From the NCBI GenBank assembly GCA_039621445.1, contig CP154954.1, positions 39,517,816 to 39,581,815 of the forward strand: a stretch of DNA of 64,000 bases, read 5' to 3'. Positions 1 to 57,689 of this stretch are shown here, in pieces. The DNA comes from Euglena gracilis. Lineage: Eukaryota. A program made the position numbers and the translations under genes. The number at the start of each line of letters is the position of its first letter. Position 1 is the stretch's first letter. The notes beneath the pieces are model-generated. The model searched no databases. It had not been told where the DNA came from and worked only from the letters and a program-made list of their open reading frames with translations.

Positions 1-903
1 GCAGGGGTGGTGTGCGGCGGGCAGGGCGGTGGGGGTCAGGCGCCCGCAGGGGTTGTCAGTGGGGCGGGGTTGCCTGGGTGTGGAGGCTTGCGTGCGTGCC
101 ACGCATTACTTTGCCCTTGCTGTTTTTTTTGAGTCACAAAACAGATAATTGATGTTGATGCGCGCAATTGCGCAAATAAAACGTACGACGGTGTGCGTGC
201 CATGGGATGAGAGGGGTGCCAATGGAAGAACCACATGATTGAAAGAGATGGGGATGAAAAGACAGGAGGGGAAAGAAAAAAGGCCGACTGGCAAACAGAC
301 CCCCGGCGGGCGGGGGTACACGCTGGCCGCCCGGGGCTGAACAGGAGGAGGGGGGCCGCCCCGCACTCCGCCGCGCGCTGGTTGTCAGTGGGGGGCGGTG
401 CTTGAGGGGAGGGGTAATTATTTTTTTTTGAACACGGGCGAGAGGGGCAGCACGACACGAGAGGGGGGCTGAAGGGTCACGAGAGGGGGTGTGTCACACC
501 AACCCAAAAAAAAAAAAAACAGAAGTCCACCTCCCTGCAGGGTAGAGGGCGTGGGGATGACGGTCAGCAGGGGGGCGGTGTACACGGACACCCATGGCGG
601 TGGGGCACTGTCTCCCAACTGGCAGGCAAATAACAAAAAAACAAACTGTGCGTTTTACTTGCGCAAGTGCGCGCATCAACACCACTGATGAATTTTTTTT
701 TCGAAATAAGAATTCTGAGAGGGGACAGACCATAGCCGAGAGGGGACTGAGAGGGGGAAACAAACTTGTAACTGTAACATTTGCGCAAATGCGCGCATCA
801 AATGTGTTTTGTTAAAAAAAAACATGAGAAGCGGTGAATGGCGTGGGGAGGAGAACTGAAGAAAAAAAAAGAAGAAGGTGCTGAGACAGGCCCACAGCCA
901 GTC

Positions 904-3900
904 TCACTTCTTGTGCTTGGTGAGCCGCTTGGCCAGGCTCTCCGAGGCGGCCGCCGGCTTGGCGCCGGGCTTGGGCAGCCCGCGGCGGACGGTGCTCCGG
1001 GGCGCCGCAGGCGGGGCGGTACGAGGCGGTGGCGGTGCCGGGGCCTCCTCCTCCTCGGACTCCTCCTCCTCGGACTCCGCCTCCTGCGTCGCCGCCGGTG
1101 CCGAGGCCGCCGCTGCCTGCGACGACGCTGCCTCCGCGGCCACCTTGGCCTTGGATGCCTCGACGATGTGCTTCATCGCCGGGTACTTCTTGGGGTCGAG
1201 GAGGTGGTACGACTTGGGGCCCTTCAGGCTTCAGGGCCTCCCCCGGGCCCGGGGGACGGATCAGTCCCGCCGCCTTCCACCGGGTGTCCTCCTTGGCTCC
1301 CTTGCCCTTGCCCTTGCCCTTGCCCTCCCCCTTCTTCTCCTCCCCCTGCTTCTCCTTCCACTTCTGGGGCACCGGCTTCCGGTACCCGGGGGTGATCTCC
1401 TCGATGGTGTCCTCCTCCTCTTCCTCTTCTCCCTGCTGCACTGGTGGGACCGCGGGAGCTTCGCTGGCGACTGCGGAGGAGGTGTCCGAGCTGTCACTGC
1501 TGCTGCTGCTGCTGCTGCTACTGTCCTCCTCCACCTCCTCCTCCTCCGGGTGGCGGCTGGGCTGGGCCACCGGCGGCGGCACGATGATGGGGCTGGCTCC
1601 GGGTTCGGGCGGGGTCAGCTCCGGGGTCTCCCGGCCGGGGGCGGTCATCTCCACGTCGCCCTCCTCCGGGCTGTCCACCGCCTCGGTCTCCTCCCGTCGG
1701 GGCTTGGGGGCTGGGGGCCTGCTGGGCCTCTTCTCCGGCTCCTTCTTCCGGCGCTTCTTCTTCCGGTCAGCCCCACCCTTCTGGCGCTCCTCCAGCTTCT
1801 GCAGGCGGCGCTGCTCCTGCCGGATCTTGGTCTGGCGGCGCCGCTCCTCGGCCTCCTTGGCCCTCGCCCCGCCTCCTCAGCGGCCAGGCGGAGCTTGTCC
1901 TGCAGGGCGGCGTTCTCCAGGGGGACCCAGAGGGCGTCCCCCCCTTCCAGGGCGGCCAGCAGGAGGGGCAGCATGGCGGAGGCGACGGGCCGGGGCAGGG
2001 TCACCGTGTTGGCCACGGTCTGGGTGACGTCCTCCAGGCTGCTGGCCGAGTCCTCCACCACCACCAGCACCTCCGGGGGCTTGGCTGCCCAGGCCGCCAC
2101 CCGGCCGGCCACCGCGGCGTCGGTGGTCTGGATCACCATGGCGTTGGCGGCCTCCATCCGCCGCGCCACCCTCCGCCACAGCCACTCCACGCACAGCCAG
2201 TGCAGCCCCTGCCCGCAGCTGGACTCCACGTCCCACTCCACCTTGGGCAGCACCTGCGAGGGCACGATGGGACCAGACAGGCATGGAAGGCTGAAAGAGT
2301 TTTCTTGTATAAGGTGCGCGCAATTGCGCGCATCAAACGATCACATTTTAAAAAAGATGCAGATGGGTGACCCTCCAGTATCCACTGTCTGAAATGCGGA
2401 ATGACAATCTGCAGAATGCGTGAGGTGGGGTGGGTACCTTGCTTCGCTCCACGTCACCCGGGCCGTACACGACCACCAGGGCCCGCTTCTCGAACTTGCG
2501 GGCCACCCCCTGGCCCCCCTGCCGCAGCCAGACGTCCACCGTCACCGACTCCCGCCCCGGCGCCAGCCGCCGCACCGCCGCCTCCACCGCAGCCACCGCC
2601 CCGGCACCGCCGTAGATGGCAACCGGCACGACGCCGGCCAGGCGCTTGACCTGCTCGGACAGGAGGGGGCAGGATTCTGTGGAGAGTGTGTTGGCGCATT
2701 GACAGACACCTTGAGTCATTGGATTTGCGCAAGTGCGTGCAACAAAACATTTGCGCAAGTGCGCGCATCAAATTTAAAAAAAAATTGCATACACAACTGG
2801 GGAGCTGTTTCTGTTGAGAGTGGGAGTATGAATTTCTTTTTTTTGTGCGCGCAATTGCGCAAGTGAAACAGAAACTACTAAAATTGAAAAGACTCACGTT
2901 TAAACAGAACCCTGAGCCCGTGTTGTGGGTGACCTCGATGGCGACGAGGCCACTGCGGCCCCCAGCGCCTCCGCCGGGACCGCTCCGCCGCTGGCCTGGT
3001 ACACCAGGCAGCGCACCCCCTTCTCCTCCCCGGCCGGCCGGGCCACCCCCACCTCCTGGAGGGCCCCGCCCTCCTTGGCCACCACCTCGGTCTCCACCGT
3101 CGGGAAGGCGAAGGAGGCCCGCAGCTCCTCGTACTGCGCCTCCACCCAGAAGGGGGCCGTCAGCACCGCCGCCAGGGGGGGCTTCGGCTCCGCCGGGCTC
3201 CAGGTCCACGACCCCAGCCTCGCCACCTGCAGCGCCGCCACCGGGACGGTCCGCTTGAAGCGGCTGCGCTCCGCCCCGTTGTGCACTGCGAGACAACGGT
3301 GAAGGGGGGGGGGAGAAGCACGTGACCACACTTGCAATGCACCCAGTGACCATCACCACCAACCGCCGTCCAATGCTATGGGCACCCTTCATATGCAACC
3401 CCGACCCACGCAGACCCCAGTGGCACACCCATCCGCGCGTGGATGTTGGGGTTGTCGACCCGCCACGCGAAGGCCACCCACATCTCGTGGGTGGCCTCGG
3501 TCACCGCCTGCTCCAGCTGGGCCAGGCCGATCCCCGGGCTCTGCAGCGCCGCCGCCACCTGCGCCCGCGCCTCGGGGGTCAGCAGCCGCCGGAGGGACCG
3601 CACGTGGGAGGACAGCAGCGTGCGGCCCCTCGCCGCCAGCGCCGACTCGACGCTCAGCAGCCCCGCCACCGCCTCCGGGTTCTCCTCCACCAGCCGCTGC
3701 AGCGGCCCCCACATCTGGATGACCTGCCCCTGAGGCAATGACACAGAGACTGGAACCCTACGCCAGTACATCATGACAATGCACTACGTCTTTGTGAGAC
3801 ATTTTTTATGCGCGCAATTGCGCAAATAAAATGGGAACCACGTCATCTGGGGGACCGACCGGTCCCAGCCGGCCTGCCGGTAGGCCGCAGCCAGCCGCAC

Positions 3901-5033
3901 CGCCGGCACCGTGCTGATGTCCTTCCCCTTCACCAGGAGGTTGGCGAACTGGGGGATGGACAGCTCCTTCACCGACGACTGGATGGCCTGCGCATCCCCG
4001 CCGGCCGCCCGCCGCAGGTGCACCGGGGTCAAGGGGTGGAGGATGGTGGCGAGGACGTATTTCGCCTGGCCACAGCCCTGCATTTGCACCACTATCTGTG
4101 AGACCTGGGAGGGGCTGCACAGGAGGGGCGACACGAGAGGGGTGGCATGAGAGGGGCGGCACGAGAGGGGCTGCACGAGAGGGGCTGCACGAGAGGGGTG
4201 ACATGGGAGGGGCAAAACAAAAAACACACAAAGAAATACAGAGCTGAATCCTTCGGGGGGTTCAACTTCTGGGACCTGAAGCCCTCCGCCCAGCGCTTCA
4301 GCGCCGAGGTGATGTGCTGCCCCGACATCAGCACGTAGTGGTTCTCTGTGAAAACAGTGGCAGGATGTGCGCGCAATTGCGCAAATCAAATGACATTGTG
4401 TGCTTGTGCGCGCAATTGCGCAAATCAAATGACATTGTGTGCTTGTGCGCGCAATTGCGCAAATCAAATGCATTGTGTGCTTGTGCGCGCAATTGCGCAA
4501 ATCAAATAGTACCAACCATGCAAAGCACAGTGGCCAAAGCAGAGCCCCACATACCAACAGAGACTCCACAGGCTAACTGATGTCAGAGAGACCGTCACAC
4601 CTCACACAGTCATATAACACACAATCACACTGAGAGACACACCGGCCTTCTTCCAGACCGTCACCCTCACCGGCTCCAGCGGGGGGTTGAGCTGCAGCTG
4701 CCGGAGCTTGCGCTCCACTTCGTTGTTGTCGAGGGGGCGGGTCTGGCCCTCCGTCATCCCGTAGTCGACGTGGAGGGTGTCGAGGGGGAGTTTGGTGCTG
4801 GTCGCCAGCACCCACTGCTCCACCTTTTCTTTGTACACCTCCGCGATGGGGAGCTTCCGGGCGGTGTTGCGGGGGCGTACCCGCCCCGGCTTGGCGGCGG
4901 GCTTGGGCTCCTGCACTGCAGCGGCCTCGGCCGGGGCGGGCTCCGCTCCGGACTCCGCCACCTCGGTCCCGGGCTCCGCCTGTCCGGGGACGGCGGGCTC
5001 CCCCTCCGGGGGGACAGCCACAGGGTCGGCCAT
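904..5033 (-). CDS. Left-arm copy of the multi-exon ParB/Srx-like + degenerate DNA-methyltransferase-like gene (frameshifted; intron-3 donor deleted; possible pseudogene)
   Basis: Mirror of the right-arm gene, ATG at 5033 and stop at 904. GC3-rich exons. Single-base indels near ~2950 and ~1865, a 7-nt duplication near ~1225, and a ~50-bp deletion near 3848. Confidence 0.7.
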
Positions 5034-5572
5034 GGTGTGCGACCTGAGGCAATTTTCAAAAAGGGGGGGTTTCTAACCAGTGACTGAACTACACATTCAA
5101 CAGCTGAATGAAGCGCATTTTAAACGCCTTCCACCCCACGGGAGGCAACCCGCCCCAAATGTGGCAAAAATTCATCCGACTTAGGCATTTTCAGGCAAAA
5201 AATAGAAAAACTGTGAAACAGTACAACGGAGCGCACAACATGCATTATTCTGGTCCGTAGCAAGGGGGGGTATGGATATGCTACGTTTTTGTAATCTTTC
5301 ACGGCCTGTCTGTGTCACAAAATGCCCAACACAAACCGGGGGTGACACGTCACGCATTCAGGTCGCGTAACTGCTAACGCACGGGCGGTTTGCCGTTGGA
5401 CGTCCGTAGGCCTGCTTTTTTGGAAATGTAGAAGGCGTACGGAGAGGAGTTTTCAATTTTTTTATTTTGGCGCACGTGCACCTCGTCACGGCGCATCGAT
5501 TGATCCGTGAAATAAAGCGTGGCGTCACTTGTATCAAAAGTTACTGAATCCTCGCCTCATCAGAAAATCCGC

Positions 5573-7983
5573 TCAGTCAGACCCCTCGAAGGGGTCCGCC
5601 GGGACGTACGCGTGGGACGCCCTCAGCTCCACAGTGTCCCGACTGCTGGTGGCCGCCCCGCGCTCCGCCTGCACTCGCCCGCCCGGCCGCTGAGGTGACG
5701 TGTCAGGGCCTGGTGATTCGAATCGCGACCGTCGAGTCGGTCGCTCACGCAGGGACCCCTCCGACGACGAGTCAGCAGCCACGGGCAACGGCAGACTCGC
5801 AGTGCCCCACTGCATTGATATTTTAAAATACACTTTTGATGCGCGCAATTGCGCAAATGTAACACAATGTATGGCTTCTGGGAGGGGGGTTTGACAGCCT
5901 ATTCTCAAAAACGGTCACACTCTGAAAACTACACAGCTACAAACGTTCAGTACCTTTCCCCCTGCTTTCAGAACACGGAGAATTACCCAAACAAACACGG
6001 AGCATGTAACACGCATGCGCACGCTGTGACTGATGGGTCATTACTTTCAAGGGGGTGTGAAGGAACTCTGTGCCAGACACAATACACAGAATGGGCCTAC
6101 CACACTTGTCTATTGGGATCAATGTGAAACAGTTCACACTTTTGATGCGCGCAATTGCGCAAATAAAAAGTGTAATCATCATTACAAGGTACATCACTAC
6201 TGACAGCATCACCACCCACTTGCAATTTTTTCTTAACGTTTGATGCGCGCAAATGCGCAAATGCTACATTACACTTTGGTATTCCTCCGGTGAATCATGT
6301 CAGCAGAACAACGGTGGCAGTAATTACAGCCCTCCCCCAGAAAGTAAATGACCAACCGCGAGTCTGGCTGCTGCCTCCCCAGCAGCCCTCTGCTGACGTG
6401 GACGGCGGCGACCCAGCACGCTGTCCCAGTGGACCTGGCACAGGTCCACCTCCGCCTGCGACCGCCGGCTGCTGCCAGCCTGCGCGTCGTAGCACAGCTG
6501 GTCCAGCTCCGCCGCCGCGTCGGCGGAGGGCACCTGGTCCTTCAGGAGCGTCCGCAGCGCGTACTGCAGCACGTCCTTCAGGGCCGTCTCGCCCTTCGGC
6601 CCCGCGTCGGGCGCCAGCAGGGACGGCGGACCGACCCAGCCGTCCGGCCACCGCGGGACCACGGACTGGTCCTCGGACTCCTCCCCCTCGTCCGCGTCCA
6701 GCTCCTCCGGCTGCCGCCGTCGCTCCGGGCGCAGCCCCCTCACCGAGGCGTACGTCACCATCTGGTGGACCAGCCGGTCGGGGGCGTCCACCGGCGGCCG
6801 CAGCTCACTGCCGTCCAGCAGGTGGTCCAGGTTGCGCAGGCAGTCCGCCAGCCACCGCCGGTCCACCCCGCCCGCTCGCAGCTCCCGGGCGCCGTGATGC
6901 CCCTGCCTCACCAGGAGGTACAGGTCCATCACGTCCTCCACCTCCACCGCCTCCGGGTGCTGCTGCATGGACCCGCCCAGCCTGCTGAGGGTGCCTCGTT
7001 CACCTCCTCCGAGAAGCAGCAGGCGGGCAGCTGCTCGTGCCACCCGTCCCACATCAGCAGCGCGCACGCCAGCGTCCGCACGTAGTCGGAGTGGCCGCGC
7101 GGCCGGTGTCCGGGTGTCGGCGCCTCCAGGTGCAGCAGCATCGTCAGGGCGTTGCACAGCACCTTCCGCGCCTGCCCGCCGGTCTGCGGCCGCCGCTCCT
7201 CCCAGTGGCACTCCCGCACCTGCCACCCCAGCGCGAAGCACGCCGGCGCCCACACCACCAGCAGGTCCTCCAGCGCCTGCGCCACCGCCAGGTCCCGCTC
7301 CAGATGCTCCAGGGCCTCCACCGCCTGGGCCTCCTTCCGGCGGCAGTGCTCCAGCGCCCGGATGCACTCCATCTCCCGGCTCCCCGACTGCCACGCCCGC
7401 TCCATCTTGGCGCTGGCCGTCGCGTGCCGCACCTGCCGGGCGGTCTGCCGCTCCGCCTCCTCCTGCCTGCGCCGGGCCTGCTGCGTCTGCTGCCGTCGCC
7501 GCTCCACCTCCGGCGCCACGGTGTCCCGCCGCCGCCGCAGGGTCCGGATCAGCCGTCGGAGGCGGGCGCGGCGGTCCGCCGGCACCAGCAGCATGGCGCC
7601 GACCCACATCTCCAGCGCCCGCACCTTCGGCTTGGTCGACCACTGCTCCCACGGCGCCATGGTGCCCCGCTGCAGGAAGAGGAACAGCGGCAGCAGGCGG
7701 CGGTACAGCACGTACAGCACCTGCTTGTACGCGTGCCACACGCCGTACAGCGGGGGCAGCTGCCGCAGCGCCTCGCCCGCGTCCCACCGCTGGCACTCCC
7801 GCCCGTACACCACCTTCAGCTGGCGGTACCAGAGGTTGATGTCCACCAGCAGAGGCAGCGGCGCCTTCACGCGGCCCAGGACGTCGCCCTTCAGGAACCG
7901 CAGGACCTTCAGCATCCCCACCTGCGAGGAGATCCGGTCGTCCGTCAGCATGAAGGGGCGCCACACCGGGACGCGGGCGTTCT
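5573..7983 (-). CDS. Left-arm copy of the 5'-truncated DDE-like transposase (Academ/DUF6589- or KDZ-like); exons ~7983-6357 and 5809-5573
   Basis: ORF 6929..7966 reads PLLVDINLWYR...LPPLYGVWHAYKQ with an intact GxWH motif, then FSEEVNE with a 1-nt frameshift at ~6993. The reading continues in the 6324..8087 frame. Confidence 0.6.
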
Positions 7984-8183
7984 CTCAGCCGCATCAGAGT
8001 CACCGCCTTTTGCGTGACACCAACTGCACAGTCACACCTCTGATACAAAACGGACCCTGAAATGTTTTGATGCGCGCATTTGCGCAAATGCGCGCATCAA
8101 AACATTTTAGGGTCTGTTTTGTATCAGAGGTGTGACTGTGCAGTTGGTGTCACGCAGAAGGCGGTGACTCTGATGCGGCTGAG

Positions 8184-10593
8184 AGAACGCCCGCGTCCCG
8201 GTGTGGCGCCCCTTCATGCTGACGGACGACCGGATCTCCTCGCAGGTGGGGATGCTGAAGGTCCTGCGGTTCCTGAAGGGCGACGTGCTGGGCCGTGTGA
8301 AGGCGCCGCTGACGCTGCTGGTGGACATCAACCTCTGGTACCGCCAGCTGAAGGTGGTGTACGGGCGGGAGTGCCAGCGGTGGGACGCGGGCGAGGCGCT
8401 GCGGCAGCTGCCCCCGCTGTACGTGTGTGGACGCGTACAAGCAGGTGCTGTACGTGCTGTACCGCCGCCTGCTGCCGCTGTTCCTCTTCCTGCAGCGGGG
8501 CACCATGGCGCCGGGGGAGCAGTGGTCGACCAAGCCGAAGGTGCGGGCGCTGGAGATGTGGGTCGGCGCCATGCTGCTGGTGCCGGCGGACCGCCGCGCC
8601 CGCCTCCGACGGCTGATCCGGACCCTGCGGCGGCGGGACACCGTGGTGCCGGAGGTGGAGCGGCGACGGCAGCAGACGCAGCAGGCCCGGCGCAGGCAGG
8701 AGGAGGCGGAGCGGCAGACCGCCCGGCAGGTGCGGCACGCGACGGCCAGCGCCAAGATGGAGCGGGCGTGGCAGTCGGGGAGCCGGGAGATGGAGTGCAT
8801 CCGGGCGCTGGAGCACTGCCGCCGGATGGAGGCCCAGGCGGTGGAGGCCCTGGAGCATCTGGAGCGGGACCTGGCGGTGGCGCAGGCGTTGGAGGACCTG
8901 CTGGTGGTGTGGGCGCCGGCGTGCTTCGCGCTGGGGTGGCAGGTGCGGGAGTGCCACTGGGAGGAGCGGCGGCCGCAGACCGGCGGGCAGGCGCGGAAGG
9001 TGCTGTGCAACGCCCTGACGATGCTGCTGCACCTGGAGGCGCCGACACCCGGACACCGGCCGCGCGGCCACTCCGACTACGTGCGGACGCTGGCGTGCGC
9101 GCTGCTGATGTGGGACCGGTGGCACGAGCAGCTGCCCGCCTGCTGCTTCTCGGAGGAGGTCAACGAGGCGACCCTCAGCCGGCTGGGTGGCTCGATGCAG
9201 CAGCACCCGGAGGCGGTGGAGGTGGAGGACGTGATGGACCTCTACCTGCTGGTGAGGCAGGGGCACCACGCCGCCCGGGAGCTGCGGGCGGGCGGGGTGG
9301 ACCGGCGGTGGCTGGCGGACTGCCTGCGCAACCTGGACCACCTGCTGGACGGCAGTGAGCTGCGGCCGCCGGTGGACGCCCCCGACCGGCTGGTCCACCA
9401 GATGGTGACGTACGCCTCGGTGAGGGGGCTGCGCCCGGAGCGACGGCGGCAGCCGGAGGAGCTGGACGCGGACGAGGGGGAGGAGTCCGAGGACCAGTCC
9501 GTGGTCCCGCGGTGGCCGGACGGCTGGGTGGGTCCGCCGTCCCTGCTGGCGCCCGACGCGGGGCCGAAGGGCGAGACGGCCCTGAAGGACGTGCTGCAGT
9601 ACGCGCTGCGGACGCTCCTGAAGGACCAGGTGCCCTCAGCCGACGCGGCGGCGGAGCTGGACCAGCTGTGCTACGACGCGCAGGCTGGCAGCAGCCGGCG
9701 GTTGCAGGCGGAGGTGGACCTGTGCCAGGTCCACTGGGACAGCGTGCTGGGTCGCCGCCGTCCACGTCAGCAGAGGGCTGCTGGGGAGGCAGCAGCCAGA
9801 CTCGCGGTTGGTCATTTACTTTCTGGGGGGAGGGCTGTAATTACTGCCACCGTTGTTCCGCTGATATGATTCACCGAGGAATACCAAAGTGTAATGTAGC
9901 ATTTGCGCATTTGCGCGCATCAAACGTTAGGAAAAAAATATGCAAGTGGGTGGTAATGCTGTCAGTAGTGATGTACCTTGTAATGATGATTACACTTTTT
10001 TATTTGCGCAATTGCGCGCATCAAAAACGTGAACTGTTTCACATTGATCCCAATAGACAGGTGTGGTTGGCCCCTTCTGTGTATTGTGTCTGGCACAGAG
10101 TTCCTTCACACCCCCTTGAAAGTAATGACCCATCAGTCACAGCGTTTGCATACCTGTTACGTGCTCCGTGTTTGTTTAGGTAATTCTCTGTGTTCCGAAA
10201 GCCGGGGGAAAGGTACTGAACGTTTGTAGCTGTGTAGTTTTCAGAGTGTGACCGTTTTTGAGAATAGGCTGTCAAACCCCCCTCCCAGAAGCCATACATT
10301 GTGTTACATTTGCGCAATTGCGCGCATCAAAAGTGTACTTTAAAATATCACTGCAGTGGGGCACTGCGAGTCTGCCGTTGCCCGTGGCTGCTGACTCGTC
10401 GTCGGAGGGGTCCCTGCGTGAGCGACCGACTCGACGGTCGCGATTCGAATCACCAGGCCCTGACACGTCACCTCAGCGGCCGGGCGGGCGAGTGCAGGCG
10501 GAGTGCGGGGCGGCCACCAGCAGTCGGGACACTGTGGAGCCGAGGGCGTCCCACGCGTACGTCCCGGCGGACCCCTTCGAGGGGTCTGACTGA
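8184..10593 (+). CDS. Right-arm copy of the 5'-truncated DDE-like transposase; exons ~8184-9806 and 10357-10593
   Basis: ORFs 8201.. and 8427..9869 are joined by a frameshift at ~8424 that corrupts GVWH. FSEEVNEATLSRL is intact. A phase-0 GT at 9807 and AG at 10355-10356 give an in-frame terminal exon ending in TGA at 10593. The exact 5' acceptor (~8184) is uncertain. Confidence 0.6.
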
Positions 10594-11137
10594 GCGATTT
10601 TCTGATGAGGCGAGGATTCAGTAACTTTTGATACAAGTGACGCCACGCTTTATTTTACGGATCAATCGATGCGCCGTGACGAGGTGCATGTGCGCCAAAA
10701 GAAAAAAATTGAAAACTCCCCACCGTACGCTTTCTACATTTCCAAAAAAGCAGGCCTACGCACGTCCAACGGCAAACCGCCCGTGCGTTAGCAGTTTCGC
10801 GACCTGAATGCGTGACGTGTCACCCCCGGTTTGTGTTGGCCATTTTGTGACACAGACAGGCCGTGAAAGATTACAAAACCGTAGCATATCCATACCCCCC
10901 CTTGCTACGGACCAGAATAATGCATGTTGTGTGTTCCGTTGTACTGTTTCACAATTTTTCCATTTTTTGCCTGAAAATGCCTAAGTCGGATGAATTTTTG
11001 TCACATTTGGGGCGGGTTGCCTGCCGTAGGGTGGAAGGCGTTTAAAATGCGCTTCATTCAGCTGTTGAATGTGTAGTTCAGTCACTGGTTAGAAACCCCC
11101 CCTTTTTGAAACTGCGCCTTGCCTCAGGTCGCACACC

Positions 11138-14100
11138 ATGGCCGACCCTGTGGCTGTCCCCCCGGAGGGGGAGCCCGCCGTCCCCGGGCAGGCGGAGCCC
11201 GGGACCGAGGTGGCGGAGTCCGGAGCGGAGCCCGCCCCGGCCGAGGCCGCTGCAGCGCAGGAGCCCAAGCCCGCCGCCAAGCCGGGGCGGGTACGCCCCC
11301 GCAACACCGCCCGGAAGCTCCCCATCGCGGAGGTGTACAAAGAAAAGGTGGAGCAGTGGGTGCTGGCGACCAGCACCAAACTCCCCCTCGACACCCTCCA
11401 CGTCGACTACGGGATGACGGAGGGCCAGACCCGCCCCCTCGACAACAACGAAGTGGAGCGCAAGCTCCGGCAGCTGCAGCTCAACCCCCCGCTGGAGCCG
11501 GTGAGGGTGACGGTCTGGAAGAAGGCCGGTGTGTCTCTCAGTGTGATTGTGTGTTATATGACTGTGTGATGTATGACGGTCTCTCTGACATCAGTTAGTC
11601 TGTGGAGTCTCTGTTGGTATGTGGGGCTCTGCATTGGCTACAGTACTTTGCATTGTTGGTACTATTTGATTTGCGCAATTGCGCGCACAAGCACACAACG
11701 TCATTTGATTTGCGCAATTGCGCGCACAGGCACACAATGTTATTTGCTTTGCGCAATTGCGCGCACAAGCACACAGTGTCATTTGATTTGCGCAATTGCG
11801 CGCACATCCTGCCACTGTTTTCACAGAGAACCACTACGTGCTGATGTCGGGGCAGCACATCACCTCGGCGCTGAAGCGCTGGGCGGAGGGCTTCAGGTCC
11901 CAGAAGTTGAACCCCCCGAAGGATTCAGCTCTGTATTTCTTTGTGTGTTTTTTGTTTTGCCCCTCCCATGTCACCCCTCCCATGTAACCCCTCTCGTGCA
12001 GCCCCTCTCGTGCCGCCCCTCTCATGCCACCCCTCTCGTGTCGCCCCTCCTGTGCAGCCCCTCCCAGGTCTCCCACACAGTCGTGCAAATGCAGGGCTGT
12101 GGCCAGGCGAAGTACGTCCTCGCCACCATCCTCCACCCCTTGACCCCGGTGCACCTGCGGCGGGCGGCCGGCGGGGATGCGCAGGCCATCCAGTCGTCGG
12201 TGAAGGAGCTGTCCATCCCCCAGTTCGCCAACCTCCTGGTGAAGGGGAAGGACATCAGCACGGTGCCGGCGGTGCGGCTGGCGGCGGCCTACCGGCAGGC
12301 CGGCTGGGACCGGTCGGTCCCGCGGGTGTGAGCCCAGTGCAGTACCTCTGCCACTGCTCCCATGCATTCAGTTTGATGACGTTGTTCCCATTTTATTTGC
12401 GCAATTGCGCGCATAAAAATGTTTCACAAAGACATAGTGCATTGTCATGATATACTTCTGTGTGTCATTGCCTCAGGGGCAGGTCATCCAGATGTGGGGG
12501 CCGCTGCAGCGGCTGGTGGAGGAGAACCCGGAGGCGGTGGCGGGGCTGCTGAGCGTCGAGTCGGCGCTGGCGGCGAGGGGCCGCACGCTGCTGTCCTCCC
12601 ACGTGCGGTCCCTCCGGCGGCTGCTGACCCCCGAGGCGCGGGCGCAGGTGGCGGCGGCGCTGCAGAGCCCGGGGATCGGCCTGGCCCAGCTGGAGCAGGC
12701 GGTGACCGAGGCCACCCACGAGATGTGGGTGGCCTTCGCGTGGCGGGGCGACAACCCCAACATCCACGCGCGGATGGGTGTGCCACTGGGGTCTGCGTGG
12801 GTCGGGGTTGCATATAAAGGGTGCTTACAGCAATGAATGGCGATTGGTGGTGATGGTCACTGGGTGCATTGCAAGTGTGATCACGTGCTTCCCCCCCCCC
12901 TTCACTGTTGTCTCGCAGTGCACAACGGGGCGGAGCGCAGCCGCTTCAAGCGGACCGTCCCGGTGGCGGCGCTGCAGGTGGCGAGGCTGGGGTCGTGGAC
13001 CTGGAGCCCGGCGGAGCCGAAGCCCCCCCTGGCGGCGGTGCTGACGGCCCCCTTCTGGGTGGAGGCGCGGCACGAGGGGCTGCGGGGCTCGGTCGCCTGC
13101 CCCCCGGCGGAGGCCGACGTGGTGGCCAAGGAGGGCGGGGCCCTCCAGGAGGTGGGGGTGGCCCGGCCGGCCGGGGAGGAGAAGGGGGTGCGCTGCCTGG
13201 TGTACCAGGCCAGCGGCGGCGCGGTGCCGGCGGAGGCGCTGGGGGCCGCAGTCAGGCTTCTTTTTAAGACCCCCGGGGGGGGGAGGGGGGGGGTCCCCCC
13301 CCACCCACCCAGGGTGGTGCGGGGCCCCCCCACCGGGGGGGGGGGGGGGGGGTCCGGGGACCCCCCCAAAATCGGGCCCGTTAAAGGCAATTTTCAAAAA
13401 TTTTCGGCGCTTCGCGCCGAAAAGGTATACCCAGCGCCTCCGGCGCGGGACCCCCCCCCTGGGGGGGAGGGTCCGGCCCGGACCCACCCACCCACCCCCC
13501 CTCCCCCCAGGGGGGGGGGGTCAGGGGAATTAAAAAGAAGCCTGGCCGCAGTGGGCCTCGTCGTCATCGAGGTCACCCACAACACGGGCTCAGGGTTCTG
13601 TTTAAACGTGAGCCTTTTTTTCAGTTTTAGCAGTTTCTGTTTTACTTGCGCAATTGCGCGCACAAAAAAAATTCATACTCCCACTCTCAACAGAAACAGC
13701 TCCCCAGTAGTGTATGCAATTTTTTTTAAATGTGATGCGCGCACTTGCGCAAATGTTTTGTTGCACGCACTTGCGCAAATCCAATGGTGTCTGTCAGTGC
13801 GCCAACACACTCTCAAACAGAATCCTGCCCCCTCCTGTCTGAGCAGGTCAAGCACCTGGCCGGTGTCGTGCCGGTCGCCATCTACGGCGGTGCCGGGGCG
13901 GTGGCCGCGGTGGAGGCGGCTGTGCAGCGGCTGGCGCCGGGGCGGGAGTCGGTGACGGTGGACGTCTGGCTGCGGCAGGGGGGCCAGGGGGTGGCCCGCA
14001 AGTTCGAGAAGCGGGCCCTGGTGGTCGTGTACGGCCCCGGTGACGTGGAGCGAAGCAAGGTACCCCACCCCACCTCACGCATTCTGCAGATTGCCATTCC

Positions 14101-15588
14101 GCATTTTAGACAGTGGATACTGGAGGGTCACCCATCCTCTGCGTCTTTTTTTAAAATGTGATCGTTTGATGCGCGCAATTGCGCGCACCTAATACACGAA
14201 AACTCTTTCAGCCTTCCATGCCTGTCTGGTCCCATCGTCCCCTCGCAGGTGCTGCCCAAGGTGGAGTGGGACGTGGAGTCCAGCTGCGGGCAGGGGCTGC
14301 ACTGGCTGTGCGTGGAGTGGCTGTGGTGGCGGGTGGTACGGCGGATGGAGGCGGCCAACGCCATGGTGATCCAGACCGCCGACGCCGCGGTGGCCGGCCG
14401 GGTGGCAGCCTGGGCAGCCAAGCCCCCTGAGGTCCTGGTGGTGGTGGAGGACTCGGCCAGCAGCCTGGAGGACGTCACCCAGACCGTGGCCAACACGGTG
14501 ACCCTGCACCGGCCCGTCGCCTCCGCCATGCTGCCCCTCCTGCTGGCCGCCCTGGAAGGGGGGGACGCCCTCTGGGTCCCCCTGGAGAACGCCGCCCTGC
14601 AGGACAAGCTCCGCCTGGCCGCCGAGGAGGCGGGGCGACGGGCCAAGGAGGCCGAGGAGCGGCGCCGCCAGACCAAGATCCGGCAGGAGCAGCGCCGCCT
14701 GCAGAAGCTGGAGGAGAGCCAGAAGGGTGGGGCTGACAGGAGGAAGAAGCGCCGGAAGAAGGAGCCTGAGAAGAGGCCCAGCAGGCCCCCAGCCCCCAAG
14801 GCCAGACGGGAGGAGACCGAGGCGGTGGACAGCCCGGAGGAGGGCGACGTGGAGATGACCGCCCCCGGCCGGGAGACCCCGGAGCTGACCCCGCCTGAAC
14901 CCGGAGCCAGCCCCATCATCGTGCCGCCGCCGGTGGCCCAGCCCAGCCGCCACCCGGAGGAGGAGGAGGTGGAGGAGGACAGCAGCAGCAGCAGCAGCAG
15001 CAGTGACAGCTCGGACACCTCCTCCGCAGTCGCCAGCGAAGCTCCCGCAGCCCCACCAGTGCAGCAGGGAGAAGAGGAAGAGGAGGAGGACACCATCGAG
15101 GAGATCACCCCCGGGTACCGGAAGCCAGAGCCCCAGAAGGGGAAGGAGAGACAGGGGGAGGAGAAGGGGGAGGGCAAGGGCAAGGCAGCAAGGGAAGGGA
15201 GCCAAGGAGGACACCCGGTGGAAGGCGGCGGGGCTGATCCGTCCCCCGGGACCGGGGGAGGCCCTGAAGGGCCCCAAGTCGTACCACCTCCTCGATCCCA
15301 AGAAGTACCCGGCGATGAAGCACATCATCGAGGCGTCCAAGGCCAAGGTGGCCGCGGAGGCAGCGTCGTCGCAGGCAGCGGCGGCCTCGGCACCGGCGGC
15401 GCCACAGGAGGCGGAGTCCGAAGAGGAGGAGTCCGAGGAGGAGGAGGCCCCGGCACCGCCACCACCTCATACCGCCCCGCCTGCGGCGCCCCGGAGCACC
15501 GTCCGCCGCGGGCTGCCCAAGCCCGGCACCAAGCCGGCGGCCGCCTCGGAGAGCCTGGCCAAGCGGGCTCACCAAGCACAAGAAGTGA
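11138..15588 (+). CDS. 7-exon gene: N-terminal ParB/Sulfiredoxin-like domain, degenerate beta-class N6/N4 DNA-methyltransferase-like region, and a charged low-complexity tail
   Basis: Phase-compatible exons 11138-11528, 11827-11922, 12105-12325, 12477-12777, 12919-13571 (MITE inside), 13847-14059 and 14249-15588. Introns are GT-AG except intron 2. Spliced N-terminus: GQTRPLDNNEVERKLRQLQLNPPLEPVRVTVWKKAENHYVLMSGQHITSALKRW. Two apparent 1-nt frameshifts in the last exon (~15187, ~15566). Confidence 0.75.
11668..11808. repeat. Four tandem ~40-bp units, each carrying the TTGCGCAATTGCGCGCAC motif, in intron 1 (mirror at ~4365-4505)
   Basis: ATTTGATTTGCGCAATTGCGCGCACAAGCACACA is repeated four times. 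Confidence 0.9.
11923..12104 (+). other. Euglenid-type non-conventional intron (mirror copy at 4068-4249, minus strand)
   Basis: Begins ATT-CAG (CAG at +4..+6) and ends CTG-TGGCC (CTG at -8..-6). The ends pair: CAGCTCTGTATTT with AAATGCAGGGCTG. Removal gives in-frame NPPK-E-AKYVLATILH. Confidence 0.75.
13253..13544. mobile_element. hAT-type MITE inserted in exon 5 of the right-arm gene only
   Basis: Perfect 15-bp TIR CAGGCTTCTTTTTAA / TTAAAAAGAAGCCTG. 8-bp TSD GCCGCAGT at 13245-13252 and 13545-13552. Empty site in the left arm at ~2952-2959. Confidence 0.93.
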
Positions 15589-17375
15589 GACTGGCTGTGG
15601 GCCTGTCTCAGCACCTTCTTTTTTTTTCTTCAGTTCTACTCCGCACTCCATTCTCTGCTTCTCATGTTTTTTTTACAAAACACTTTTGATGCGCGCATTT
15701 GCGCAAATGTTCCTGTTACAAATGTTTCCCCCTCTCAGTCCCCTCTCAGCTATGGTCTGTCCCCTCTCGGAATTCTTGTTCCAAATAAAAAAAATCATCA
15801 GTAGTGTTGATGCGCGCAATTGCGCAAATAAAACGCACACTTTTTTTTGTTTTGTTATTTGCCTGCCAGCTAGGAGACAGTGCCCCACCGCCGTGGTGTC
15901 CGTGTACACCGCCCGCTGCTGACCGTCATCCCCACGCCCTCTACCCTGCAGGGAGGTGGACTTGTTTTTTTTTGGGGGGTTGGTGTGACACACCCCCTCT
16001 CGTGACCCTGCAGCCCCCCTCTCGTGTCGTGCTGCCCCTCTCACCCGTGTTCAAAAAAAAAATTACCTCTCCCCCCAAACACCGCCCCCCACTGACAACC
16101 AGCGCGCGGCGGAGTGCGGGACGGCCCCCTCTTCCTGTTCAGCCCCGGGCGGCCAGCGTGTACCCCGCCCGCCGGGGGTCTGTTTGCCAGTCTGCCTTTT
16201 CTCTTTCTTCCCTCCTCCTCCCTTCCCCCCCCCCCCTCCCCCTTTTACCTCACCTTCTGCCCCCCGCTCCCTCCCCCCCTCCCGTCCATTCCCTCCTCCT
16301 TCCCTTTCCCTCCTCCCCCCTCCCCTTTGCCCTCCCCTCCGCACCTCCAGCCCCATTCCTTCCCTCCTCCGCCCCCCCGAGGTCCCCCCCACCACCCCCC
16401 CATGCCCAGAGCCCTCCCCTGACAGGGCCACCTCCTTCCCCCCTGTACCCCCCTCGACCCCCCCTCCCCGACCGCCCCATCCCTTCCAGCCCTGCCCAAG
16501 CTCCCCTCTGCCCCAGCCCAATGGTCCCACCAGGACCGCTCCCGGGAACCCCGAGGCCACCAGCAGACAAAGCCCGAAACCCCCCCCATCCATCCCAATT
16601 CCCCCCCCCTGCCAGACACCCCGCCAGACAACCCCCCCCCACGACCCCCGGAGGGTTTTGGCCCCCCCCCAAGAACCCGACCCCCCCGCAGGAGAAGAGG
16701 CCATCCTCCCCGCCCCGGAACCCCTCACCCCTCCGGACGCGGGGAGGCCAAAGACTTCACCATCCACCACAGGGCCCTGCCCGAGCCCCAAAGCCCAAAG
16801 AAAAGGACACACAGCCAAGAACCCGCAGCCAGACCTCCCACCGGGGCCCATGAAGGCCCCAATCCGCCCCCCGAGGCCCCAAAGCTTTTCCCCAGCTCCT
16901 CCCCTCGACGTCCCGCATATCCATGGTGCCACCCCCTCCGAAGAGGAGGGTGCCATAGCGCACCCCCCACCCGCCGCGCCGCGACTCAGCTTTCCCTCCC
17001 CCGGCGCAGCTCCAAGGAGCCGCCTCTTCCCGCCCCCTCCTCCAACCCCGGACGTGCAACAAGCCCGACGCCAAGCGGGGAAGGTAGGGGAAGCGGCAAG
17101 AAAAGTAAGAGAGCGGTGGGCCTGTCTCAGCCCCCCTTTGTTTTCCGCTCTAGTCTGCCACCCATTTTGAACACTTTTCCGCGCATTGCGCGTTTTCAGT
17201 TTTTCCCCTCAGTCCCCTGTGGCCTTCAGATTCCAAATTAAATTACATCGGGTGGATGCGGCCGCCACACCGTTTTTTTTCAGTGCTGTCAGAAATATCA
17301 CTGTCCGCTGCCCGGTGTCCCCCCGGCCCCACCGCCTGGAGGGTACTGGACCCCCCCCCCCGAACACCCTTTTTG

Positions 17376-53272: not shown

Positions 53273-54571
53273 ATCGTGGACTAAGAGGCCCGACGCCTGC
53301 CCTGTATATCGTTGATTGGCTTCACGCTTCAAATTAGCAGCATTTTTTTTAACAAAAAAATCAAAATTTTCAGTCCACGAGGCGCCTCCCTGTATTTCGT
53401 GGACTCAGTCCACGAAATACAGGGCAGGCGCCGGGGGGGGGGGTGGGCAATGCCTGCCCTGTATTTCGTGGACTGAAACAATGTTCTTTTTCCAGTTGCT
53501 TTTCTGCACCAATGGCGAAACGCGCGGCTATCATCATACTCCCTCGTCCCCCGAAAACATCTGAATTTTTGGCCATGTTGGAGAAAATCATCGACAACAA
53601 AAAAAACACCAGTCGTCGATCCAGTTCACGGGACTTTGCTCCAACAAGCAACAGCAAATAAGCCAGCTGCATTTGTGCCTTGGCACATCTGATGGATTTC
53701 CATCAACTGTGTCAGGACCTATAGGCAGTGTATGATGATCTGGATGACTTTTTTGTTGCCAGTGCCGGCTGGATGATTGATCCCAGTTTGTTGGTTGACG
53801 GCACAGCCCAAATCAGGCAACTGTGGGATCAACGGTGTGCACAGGCCGGTCAAAGATGCAGCGCCATCGCAGTGAAAGCATCCTCCTTCCGCGGCTACCT
53901 GACTGCCGTGGGACGAGCATACTCCTCAATCAAGCCAGAAACCCAAGCGGTGCCTTCCTCCAACTCCCAGTTTTCAAAGTTCCCGCGGTTCTTTCCGTCT
54001 GCTTACACCCGTGAACTCACCAAAAAAGCGGCAAACCAGGCTGTGCACCCCCCCATGAAATTTTACAGGACGACGAGTTGCCACGGGTGTTGTGAGAAGT
54101 GGATTGGACAAAGCCCTTTGAGGCCCAGCGGGCCAATATTTTTATTCTGGGTTTCTGCACAGGCTACCGCCCAGAGGTTCTGCGGAGACTGGAGGTTGAT
54201 TCCTTTGTGGAATCTGGAAACAGCACAAGCAGTTTCACTAGCCACTTCGTTGGGTCCCCTTTTCAGTGGCTAAAGCATTCTTTTTGCGTTCTGCTCATTG
54301 TGAAGTACAAAGGCAAGGATTTGCATTGAGTATCTCTTTGACAGTAGTAATATGTCAAAAAATCCAGTCCACAAAAACCATGCACTGATATTCGTGGACT
54401 CAGTCCACGAAATACAGTGCAGGCGTTGACCCCCCCCCCCCCGGCACCTGCCCTGTATTTCGTCAGTCCACGAAATATAGGGCAGGCGCCAGGGGGGGGG
54501 TCAACGCCTGCACTGTATTTCGTGTTCCAATCCACGATATACAGGGCAGGCGTCGGGCCTCAGTCCACGAT
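53273..54571. mobile_element. TIR element flanked by TATA, carrying a tyrosine-recombinase remnant (Crypton-like)
   Basis: TIR ATCGTGGACT..GAGGCCCGACGCCTGCCCTGTATATCG. TATA at 53269-53272 and 54572-54575. Internal repeats of CCTGTATTTCGTGGACTCAGTCCACGAAATACAG. Confidence 0.75.
53728..54260 (+). pseudogene. Decayed Crypton/DUF3504-like tyrosine recombinase fragment
   Basis: KASSFRGYLTAVGRAY...FSKF...RELTKK, then a frameshift in the C-run at ~54050, then EILQDDELPRVL*EVDWTKPFEAQRANIFILGFCTGYRPEVLRRLEVDSF (box-I-like TGYR at 54159-54170; stop at 54093). Confidence 0.55.
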
Positions 54572-54702: not shown

Positions 54703-57689
54703 CTTAGGCGGCCTAATTCGAACTTAAGCTTTTTTCGTTTGATGCGCGCATTTGCGCAAATTTACGATTTTTTTGATTGTGCCCTGTTTCGGCTGTGAAG
54801 GTCAGGGGGGTTTGAAAACACGGCAACAAGAGAGTGCAAAAAATGATCGAAATTCTGATTTTGGCTGTGAGAGCCCCAGGACTTTGGCGAAAAACAGTGA
54901 TTTTTGGGGGTGTCGGAAAGGACTTTGTGGGCTCAAACCTACGGGACCCTGCCGGCCCACCCTGAAAAAAACGCAAAAAAACACCATAGGAACGGGACCT
55001 TTACTGCCCCTGTTGCTTCTTTCGGCTGTGTCCCCGGGTGTGCCCGAGCTGCCGGCGGTGTGCGTCCTGGGTGTTTGCCGGACTGCGTTGCTTGCGGCGC
55101 CCCAGTGTGGTGTTTTTGAGCTGTTTGTTAAAGTGCAGGGAGGAAGGTCCGGGGGGTGTGGGTGTGGTGTGACCGAGCCGGCGGGAAGGACGCTGGGGAA
55201 GAAAGATGAGTGTGGGGTGTTTGGGAAGGGATGCGCAGAGGGGGAAGGAACGGGGTCCGCAGGGAATGAAGGGAATAAAGGGGACGGGTGTCTCCCACGC
55301 GGCTTATACCCAGGACCCACACAACCAGTGGTGTGGCAAAGAACCCTGCAGAAGAAGCCCAACACTGGAAGGACAAAATTACGTTTGATGCGCGCAATTG
55401 CGCGCACCAACATGTTTATGTTGATGCGCGCAATTGCACACATCAACATAAACATGTCCTTCAAGGATTGGGCTTTGGTACCCACGAACTGACGCTGCTG
55501 ATAAACGGTGTGACAAAGAGGCCGTGACGGCACGGACTGACGGGCCATCCAGTTGGTGGGTTTGCCACACTGTTTGTCAACGCGCAAGCTTATGGGCGCA
55601 AATGCGCGCATCAAACACAAAACATTTTTATGCGCGCATTTGCGCAAATGCGCGCATAAACATGTTTTGTGTTTGATGCGCGCATTTGCGCAAATGAACG
55701 CAAAGAAGAACGGTGTGACAGAAACACAGCCGTCAAACGCCGACAGCGGAAGTGGTTTATTTGCGCACTTGCGCGCATCACGTTGTCTGTGGGCGCAAAT
55801 GAGCAAATAAAACAGATGTAAATTGTTCAGTTTACATCTGTTTTATTTGTGCATTTGCGTCCATAAAACAACGTGATGCGCGCAAATGCGCAAATAAACC
55901 ACCAATGGAGGAGTAATAAGTGACTTCCTTTGGTGCTCCTACAGCCACCCTTAGTGGCTTCTGAGTGGGTTCAACCCAAATGACTACACCGTCCCCTCCG
56001 GGATATGGTGTTACGGTGCCGTTTTTGGACCATCGACAGGCCCGGCAAAAGATGGAGACATAGCATCTTTTGATGGTGGGTGCACAGCCACCCAGTAACA
56101 GTGCACATCCACTGGCACCAATTTTTGGTTCCCAAGGGCCCTGCGGCTGGCCTGCGGCTTCGGCTCCGCCGCTGCAGCCCCATCAGCTGCTGATGCTTCA
56201 GCACCCAGCAGGCCGGCATCGACCTCCCCGGTGCAATGACACCCACCACAGCGGCCACGTTATACCCCGCCACTGGGGTGTAAGATTGGGGGGACGACGT
56301 GGTGCCAGTGCATGGCAACCAACAGCTGGAGAGAGGTGGCCCTCAAACACCCGTTACTTTGGGTACAAGGAAGTGGTGGATTGGTCGTATCAAAGCGGTG
56401 GGACCCACTTCCCCCCAAATTGTGCACAAAAACCGGTGTTTTTTACATTTTTCAAGGGAAAAATGGCAAAGAAAACCATAAAACGGACTACGGCCCGACA
56501 CGTCCCGGGTGTTTCAGGTGCCAAATTTTGACTTCTTGCAACGCAGTCTTGTTGCACAAAAGGTGTTCAACAGTCACAGGTCGTTTGCACGTCATCATTT
56601 CATTACATTTAATTGCCAAACGCATGACGCCAAAACAACAGGCCGTTCGGGCCGGGGAACAGCAGTGCACATGTACACACGCAAGGCAGGCAAATCTTGG
56701 CCAGTCAGATGCCGTGTTCCAGTGAACACTCCACACTGCCTCTCACCACCAATTTCATCACCACGTAATCTTGGTGCAAATCAATGGTTGGCGTGAGGAA
56801 TTGTGTTCGCCAGCCGTCACGGAGCAGGAGATGGTATCCCACAACTGATGTGTTTTGATGCGCGCATTTGCGCAAATAAACAAACTTTGTTTATGTGCTC
56901 TAAGGGCCCTACAAACACATCATTTTGAAGCGGTTTATTAACGTGTTGATGCGCGCATTTGCGCAAATGCGCGCATCAACAAAAGTGTCTTTATTTGCGC
57001 AATTGCGCGCACCAACACGTCCATCACGTTTTTAAACCTTCTAGTTCATGGTCCTTATTGGTGTCTTTTAACATGGAAGGAAAACGTACGTGTTTGGTGG
57101 GCGGAAATGCGCGCATCAAACGCATTTGGTGGTGTGCGCTTTTGCGCAAATGCGCACATAAACAAATTTGTTGGTGCGCGCACTGGCGCCCATAAACACG
57201 TCATTTTATCATCATCGGTGGACGTTTTATTTGCGCAAATGCGCGCATCAAACACAATTGTTTTATTTGCGCAATTGCGCCCATAAACACACATCAATTG
57301 CGTGATGACTGGCTCACGTAGTCTGTGTGCCTGTGGTGTTGTTATCTAGTGAGACTCAGTGTGTTCTCACCGGTGGCGGCAGTATCCAAGCCAGTTCAGG
57401 CAGCACGTCAGCACCGTTTCCAAGTGTCGTCACAAGGGGTGTGTGCCTCTCTCCCGTTTGATGTACAACAGCACAAGTCTCACCCTCCGTCCTATTAACG
57501 TCACCTGGTAAGCAGCATGCACACCAGACCACTGGGAGTTAATCCCCTCCAATAGATGGGTGTAACGGTTCTTAAATCGTGTTCTGGCTGTCAGGGTACA
57601 GGGTCCAAGGGGTTACAAAAAAATTGTAAATTTGCGCAATTGCGCGCATCAAAAGGAAAAAAGTTTAAGTGCGAATTCGGCCGCCTAAG
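54703..57689. mobile_element. 2987-bp non-autonomous DNA transposon with ~75-bp TIRs and a 5-bp TSD, rich in the GATGCGCGCAATTGCGCAAAT motif
   Basis: Left end CTTAGGCGGCCTAATTCGAACTTAAGC..GATGCGCGCATTTGCGCAAATTTACG. Right end, reverse complement: CTTAGGCGGCCGAATTCGCACTTAAAC..GATGCGCGCAATTGCGCAAATTTACA. TSD AGGTA at 54698-54702 and 57690-57694. It interrupts a host repeat with GAT(G/T)CCTAATTT motifs on both sides. Confidence 0.9.

Follow-up and report, generated by a model that had tools for sequence, protein, structure and literature searches.

A MITE-like element inserted in a conserved exon of Euglena gracilis and its fit to the code of euglenid nonconventional introns

Introduction

Can the insertion of a transposon into a coding exon be, at the same time, the birth of a nonconventional intron? 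The question is raised by a 292-nt inverted-repeat element found in a stretch of 64,000 nucleotides from Euglena gracilis (assembly GCA_039621445.1, contig CP154954.1, positions 39,517,816 to 39,581,815 of the forward strand; hereafter the window, whose numbering is used throughout). The element occupies positions 13253-13544, within an exon on the right arm of a large palindrome, and an initial annotation, made from the letters of the DNA, described it as a MITE (a miniature transposable element with inverted repeats) of the hAT superfamily whose insertion coincides exactly with a euglenid nonconventional intron.

At this locus a hAT-like MITE has genuinely inserted into conserved coding sequence, and the insertion looks young; the insertion, its inverted ends, its target-site duplication, the empty sites, the conservation of the exon, the arithmetic of the reading frame and the fit to the intron code are direct observations. 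The removal of the element from a transcript is a prediction that follows from the published rules, and the connection between the two is an attractive hypothesis.

Structure of the element

The element, whose sequence was read directly, has a G+C content of 72%. Its two ends, CAGGCTTCTTTTTAA and TTAAAAAGAAGCCTG, are perfect inverted repeats of each other over 15 nt; the element starts with CAGG and finishes with CCTG. It is flanked on both sides by GCCGCAGT, an exact 8-bp duplication that the final G of the element lengthens to a direct repeat of 9 nt (repeat family D4). Thus, the description of a MITE with CAG...CTG ends and an 8-bp target-site duplication was borne out. The features are:

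13245-13252, plus strand: first copy of the target-site duplication, GCCGCAGT, identical to 13545-13552 and present as a single copy at the left-arm empty site.
13253-13544, plus strand: non-autonomous inverted-repeat element (MITE-like) of 292 nt, recognised by inverted ends, duplication, empty left arm and RNA fold.
13253-13267, plus strand: 5' terminal inverted repeat, CAGGCTTCTTTTTAA; the exact 15-mer occurs elsewhere in the window only at 13530-13544, on the minus strand.
13530-13544, plus strand: 3' terminal inverted repeat, TTAAAAAGAAGCCTG, complement of the 5' end.
13545-13552, plus strand: second copy of the target-site duplication, GCCGCAGT, identical to the first.

Exact matches to the 15-mer end number two in the whole 64-kb window, both being the ends of the element itself, where 0.26 would be expected by chance at up to two mismatches. 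The interior consists of hairpins of G-runs and C-runs around a centre richer in A+T; in the predicted RNA fold the two ends pair, with a minimum free energy of -232 kcal/mol (100 shuffles give z = -5.4). Translated in the frame of the exon, the insert contains no stop and keeps the frame, as had been stated in the initial annotation, and adds 100 residues; those encoded by the element are rich in G and P and of low complexity, and the 292 nt hold no transposase gene. Three of the characters by which a MITE is recognised are present, namely terminal inverted repeats, a target-site duplication with a matching empty site, and short length without a transposase gene.

The window was scanned for perfect inverted repeats of at least 12 nt flanked by an 8-bp direct repeat, with 30 block shuffles as control. 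The real sequence gave 17 matches and the shuffles gave none; 15 of the 17 have self-complementary 8-mers that stem from the large palindrome or from a palindromic motif described below, one belongs to a family of hairpin repeats and the last is the element at 13253-13544, which is thus the sole match that neither the large palindrome, nor the palindromic motif, nor the hairpin repeat explains.

The hairpin repeat is about 70 nt long (GTCCACGAAATACAGGGCAGGC, followed by a G/C run and by the complement) and has copies at 53370-53480 and 54385-54500. A second apparent combination of 8-bp duplication and inverted repeat, at 53405-54470, was rejected, since it consists of copies of this repeat and holds no duplication.

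Empty sites in the left arm and in homologous proteins

The left arm of the palindrome carries a single GCCGCAGT, read at 2959-2952 on the minus strand, and lacks the element, in agreement with the initial annotation:

2952-2959, minus strand: empty site of the left-arm twin, with one GCCGCAGT followed by GG and not GGG.

Behind the second copy of the repeat stands GT-GGG-CCTC in the right arm, as against GT-GG-CCTC in the left; because the left arm has one G fewer, the alignment gap between the arms is 301 nt and not 300. The two arms can also be told apart upstream of the element, where they differ at about 13068-13120 and the right arm has the specific stretch ..RHEGLRGSVACPPAEAD.., and by the GGG at 13553-13555.

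An independent view of the site came from proteins. The exon, translated straight through the element (P0005), was searched against 1.84 billion representative proteins at E <= 1e-3 and gave 30 matches, 29 to the exon and one, the 30th (P0035), to the insert. Eight of the 30 were fetched, P0035 among them, and the other seven were aligned: all seven lack the insert and pass the site ungapped, ..AAV being followed directly by GLVV.. or by corresponding residues, with identities of 35-67% over the alignment (78% over the matched stretches for P0006). P0006 keeps the frame of the right arm, so the G missing from the left arm is a private loss and not the ancestral state. The built-in empty-site control that had been claimed for the locus is sound: besides the left arm, the site is undisturbed in the independent family copy represented by P0006 and in six homologues at greater distance.

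Fit to the nonconventional-intron code

Euglenid nonconventional introns carry CAG at +4..+6 and CTG at -8..-6, and at each of their two junctions a pyrimidine is followed by a purine (PMC4770533, PMC11282704); together with the pairing of the ends (PMC12501133), these are the rules that the initial annotation had applied, and they stand as published. In E. gracilis the consensus extends to CCAGG at +3..+7 and CCTG at -9..-6 (PMC11170887). Knock-in genetics has refined the code to N3-CDG...CH'G-N5-6/R (the slash marking the junction), with a 5' spacer that does not tolerate a change of one nucleotide in either direction, and E. gracilis spliced five out of five fully synthetic introns that had been designed from these rules and given 12 paired bases (PMC12501133).

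Applied to the locus, the code gives the following:

13250-13549, plus strand: predicted nonconventional intron of 300 nt, cgc/AGTCAGG...CCTGGCCGC/agt, a prediction from the code.

This segment reads AGT-CAG ... CTG-GCCGC / A and agrees with every published cis-rule: CAGG lies at +4..+7, CCTG at -9..-6, and the pyrimidine/purine junctions are C/A at both 13249/13250 and 13549/13550. The terminal pairing, estimated by joining 10 nt of each end through U7 (PMC11170887), is -11.6 kcal/mol, compared with 0 to -2.3 kcal/mol for the six GT-AG introns of the host gene. The third base of the exon downstream is C in 30 of 55 published cases; here it is T.

A scripted check of the reading frame on the host gene model showed that removal of the 300 nt leaves 1108 codons open and retention leaves 1208, while removal of 301 nt from the GT at 13251 to the AG at 13551 leads to a stop after 478 codons. 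Since the latter breaks the frame, the frame seen in the homologues is kept only by the 300-nt removal or by retention. Ten start positions, 13244 to 13253, yield the identical deletion product of 300 nt, so the exact borders could not be read from the product. The proposal that the intron equals the element plus one copy of the duplication therefore holds as regards the rules and the restored frame; the word "exact", applied to its borders, has to be given up, ten starts being equivalent.

We lean, by a slight degree beyond an even chance, to an explanation in which the transposon insertion doubles as a predicted nonconventional intron. A non-autonomous DNA transposon of 292 nt would have inserted, with an 8-bp duplication, into a conserved coding exon, in one of the copies of a multi-copy gene; its CAG/CTG ends and the duplication would give 13250-13549 everything that the published cis-code of Euglena nonconventional introns asks for; and, if the right-arm copy is transcribed in a cell with the nonconventional machinery, the element and one copy of the duplication, 300 nt in all, would be excised and the pre-insertion mRNA restored. 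Both the transcription of this copy and the excision are inferences.

The same segment can be compared with the established introns of E. gracilis and E. agilis. It shares with them the spacers of 3 and 5 nt, the purine at the acceptor, the pyrimidine/purine junctions and the pairing of the ends, as well as direct repeats at the borders, which make these "slidable", and a length within the reported range. It differs in being a recognisable transposon, with intact inverted ends and duplication, and in that its excision is a prediction.

Family and copies of the element

hAT elements have the terminal consensus YARNG and the target nTnnnnAn; duplications of about 8 bp are also made by the P, Merlin, Zisupton and Novosib superfamilies, to one of which the element might instead belong. 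With MITEs of the hAT superfamily the element shares the 8-bp duplication, the short inverted ends starting with CAG, the small size and the want of coding capacity of its own. Its terminal pentamer, CAGGC, matches YARNG at four positions out of five, the fifth being C, and its target, GCCGCAGT, misfits the hAT consensus; both facts count against the explanation favoured above. None of the long open reading frames (ORFs) of the window belongs to a Pfam family, so no autonomous partner or hAT transposase was seen within the 64 kb. The hAT label of the initial annotation is hence retained in a weaker form: by duplication length and CAG ends, and by these two characters alone, the element may be called hAT-like; pentamer and target tell against a full assignment.

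Within the window the element is present in one copy. Evidence on further copies was taken from proteins and from the assembled contigs of four sequencing runs: X1, a DNA run; X15 and X17, guessed to be RNA, which cover introns and spacer and thus behave as DNA; and X20, a true RNA library (a leaf-litter metatranscriptome). In X1 the summed contig depth of the bin that holds the element is about ten times that of the bins beside it, and in X15, X17 and X20 the excess is larger still, a figure confounded by the G/C runs. Two contigs of X17 have other flanks and part from the window sequence precisely in front of 13253. P0035, whose match to the element-encoded residues spans 79 aligned positions at 43% identity (the last 16 or so lie beyond the element, in a weak gapped match to the exon), probably represents another copy or a relative of the element elsewhere. 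A search in which the 100 element-encoded residues were the only query found no relatives.

A metagenome scan for the element end followed by CCCC returned five loci (L001-L005) with 36-44% G+C; as each shares a match of only 21 nt, they were set aside as chance.

Host gene and repeat unit

The exon that carries the element belongs to a gene model that lies, in turn, on one arm of the palindrome:

11138-15950, plus strand: multi-exon host gene model of the right arm, with exons 11138-11528, 11827-11927, 12068-12325, 12477-12777, 12919-13607, 13847-14059 and 14249 onward.
12919-13607, plus strand: exon 5, carrying the element, with acceptor ...tctcgcag/ and donor /gtgagc; its protein is conserved in 29 database proteins (E <= 1e-3).
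264-16216, no strand: palindrome centred at 8083/8084 without spacer, whose arms are two head-to-head copies of a high-copy repeat unit.

The 3' part of the gene model is unreliable owing to a frameshift near 15186-15195. The exon itself is conserved coding sequence with good splice sites, on a right-arm copy that may be dead. Searches of the host exons and gene against Pfam and PDB gave nothing above noise, and these searches do not support what we take to be a ParB-like motif (..ENHYVLMSGQH..) across exons 1 and 2. No longer, possibly spliced, proteins containing the exon were found in a search for them, and a cluster look-up of the eight fetched matches returned no useful protein name.

The splice signals of the gene are, to judge from the sequence, Euglena-style. 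Donors are GTGTG in three of the six introns and GTGAG in one, acceptors are CAG in all six, and the last 20 bases of the six introns together contain 50 C versus 39 T. Both ATGs (8505 and 11138, each in the context caccATGG) are preceded, 10-11 nt upstream, by acceptor-like sites (..cctgcag / ..gcctcag), as one would expect where trans-splicing adds a spliced leader. E. gracilis is described as peculiar in its GTGTG donor consensus, its C-rich tract and the CAG acceptor that its introns share with outrons (PMC11170887). Taken alone, this style of splice site makes a euglenid origin likely, against which stands the GT-AG type of all six introns. Rfam gave 0 matches on the whole window, hence no spliced-leader, 5S or small nuclear RNA.

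The arms of the palindrome, at 8084-16216 (right) and 8083-264 (left), are 97.16% identical over 7752 aligned nt, a divergence that argues against a simple fold-back artefact of assembly. Each repeat unit contains a 454-codon ORF (8505-9866) and the multi-exon gene. The only relatives found for ORF1 are four metagenome proteins; none was found in genome contigs or in viral contigs, and a protein atlas held no usable match. The arm as a whole may represent a large, uncharacterised mobile element.

A palindromic motif pair, TTGCGCAA(T/A)TGCGCGCA, is found in almost all introns of the host gene; in intron 1 it takes the form of a 39-nt tandem repeat, and it returns at 54.7-57.2 kb. The motif pair was located at 11664-11806, 4366-4507, 12397-12415, 13640-13790, 14170-14190 and 54743-57250, and it reappears as read-through residues in an intron of P0013, a homologue with 35% identity from another source.

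Some contigs of X20 are 97-100% identical to parts of the arm (8159-8619, 9426-9823, 12493-12792 and 14849-15078), which suggests that the source organism, a close relative or at least the repeat family occurs in a sample of the leaf-litter type. The cover includes sequence that precedes the ATG and reaches 15 nt beyond a donor; the contigs thus show no processing.

Alternative explanations

The strongest alternative is that a plain transposon insertion took place in a decaying and probably silent repeat copy and was never excised, or never transcribed, the fit to the code being a by-product of CAG/CTG ends and an 8-bp duplication; we regard it as a serious possibility, at somewhat more than one chance in three. 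Several facts speak for it, and all of them weigh against the view that the insertion doubles as an intron. The arm belongs to a high-copy family (27,683 contigs of X1 fall on its 8.1 kb, and all 30 bins are deeply covered). Both copies are damaged: the reading frame of the right one shifts near 15186-15195, in a (GGCAAG)n stretch; the left one lacks 50 nt, including a GTGTGA donor (right 12325-12374 versus left 3847-3851), and has several indels of 1-2 nt and a 7-nt duplication, CCTGAAG, at 1235. High copy number and the frameshifts in both copies mean that expression of the element-carrying copy is not required, and the insertion may be neutral in a dead copy. The locus also adjoins about 30 kb of satellite (17472-48500), with a 78-nt unit, sub-periods of 34, 112, 156 and 190 and constant strand skew. 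The other six introns of the gene are all GT-AG; nonconventional introns make up 16,151 of the 28,337 introns of E. gracilis, or 57% (PMC11170887), and 71.8% of those of E. agilis (PMC12501133).

Duplicated blocks break up the satellite at about 40.8-41.9 kb and 44.0-45.1 kb.

The sequencing runs add to the same side. The X20 contigs give thin cover, in 19 of the 30 bins, and none bridges 13245-13552, so that no inference on splicing was drawn from them; a 300-nt skip is not among the joints listed (15 of 138); and contigs of an independent run were not seen to bridge the insertion junctions. Since the insert is in frame and stop-free, its retention would not trigger decay, and the long G/C hairpins inside the element might interfere with excision. 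Part of the fit is, moreover, arithmetic: for any element with CAG/CTG ends and an 8-bp duplication, borders placed 3 nt before and 5 nt after it always remove the element plus 8 nt, and the pyrimidine/purine junction, to be expected in about one case in four, is then the sole extra.

What goes beyond arithmetic is that the published spacers sum to the length of the duplication, that the ends equal the longer E. gracilis consensus, CAGG/CCTG, and not just CAG/CTG, and that the pyrimidine/purine step falls at positions 5/6 of the duplication. These points favour the transposon that doubles as an intron, as do two further ones: synthetic sequences with these features and no others were spliced (PMC12501133), so that any Euglena transcript running through the element should be processed, and over 1100 codons of the reading frame that surrounds the insert remain open.

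It is very improbable that the element works as a spliceosomal introner, with a donor GT in the first copy of the duplication (13251) and an acceptor AG in the second (13550-13551). The sequences GCA/GTCAGG and CCGCAG/T are indeed present, and introners of Micromonas, Aureococcus and dinoflagellates likewise are short DNA transposons in exons whose removal uses the element and its target duplication, one splice site being co-opted from the latter (PMC11282704). Those introners are removed by the spliceosome at GY..AG; here, instead, a GT..AG intron would measure 301 nt, shift the frame and lead to the stop after 478 codons. Nor is there a polypyrimidine tract before the AG, the last bases being AAAAAGAAGCCTGGCCGCAG, and the donor GTCAGG is unlike the GTGTG and GTGAG of the gene itself.

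That no insertion occurred, the segment having been lost from the left arm and the homologues by deletion or excision, or having arisen in assembly, is the least probable explanation of all, for although the 1-nt loss beside the left-arm site could pass for an excision footprint and the junctions were not seen bridged, perfect inverted ends enclosed by an exact 8-bp duplication are what an insertion leaves as its mark, and no assembler creates such a duplication, seven homologues out of seven lack the segment down to 35% identity, with the site of P0006 undisturbed in the right-arm frame, and the one clean copy at the empty site is unlike hAT excision, which usually leaves parts of both duplication copies.

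Relation to previous work

The idea that euglenid nonconventional introns come from MITEs is not new, as the initial annotation had itself remarked: it was proposed in 2014 (PMC3935182). Junction repeats resembling target duplications were noted in a 2024 review (PMC11282704), and border repeats have been reported for 84.4% of E. agilis introns (PMC12501133); as late as 2025 the origin of these introns "remains unclear", and MITE-like elements "may be" their source (PMC12501133, PMC12621601). The closest precedent is gapC of E. agilis, where a new nonconventional intron specific to one strain (intron 4, strain ACOI 323) was described with eight-nucleotide direct repeats (Milanowski et al. 2016, PMC4770533). 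Like the present locus, it is a recent gain with an empty-site control, provided there by other strains, and with eight-nucleotide repeats at the junctions; differently from it, the gene is a single-copy housekeeping gene, RNA evidence demonstrated the gain, and its authors attributed the repeats to double-strand-break repair and not to a transposon duplication.

In the full-text literature consulted, mostly open texts, no link of Euglena nonconventional introns to hAT was found, nor any reading of the spacers as 3+5 = 8 bp of duplication, nor a nonconventional intron with a named transposon family or with intact inverted ends plus duplication. The reading of the two spacers as the footprint of an 8-bp duplication is simple and was apparently not stated before; the MITE origin and the eight-nucleotide repeats, conversely, were already known.

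Implications for intron origin in euglenids

A wider reading can be advanced tentatively, its chances being somewhat short of even. The fixed spacers of 3 and 5 nt would reflect descent from a CAG...CTG-ended transposon that makes 8-bp duplications; the machinery would measure from the paired ends and remove the element with one copy of the duplication, so that insertions would be erased at the RNA level and exons could be colonised by the hundred thousand; and here, for the first time, the transposon, with its inverted ends and duplication intact and its empty sites known, could be seen to be one and the same thing as the intron-to-be. The interpretation of the spacer geometry as an 8-bp duplication footprint is consistent with the data, its basis being one locus and one published case.

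If the link fails, the locus holds one more MITE in a dead repeat copy. In either case it provides a concrete element whose ends equal the intron consensus and whose 8-bp duplication is as long as the two experimentally fixed spacers taken together. If the link is true, it would explain why insertions in exons are harmless in euglenids and how about 70% of introns could be nonconventional.

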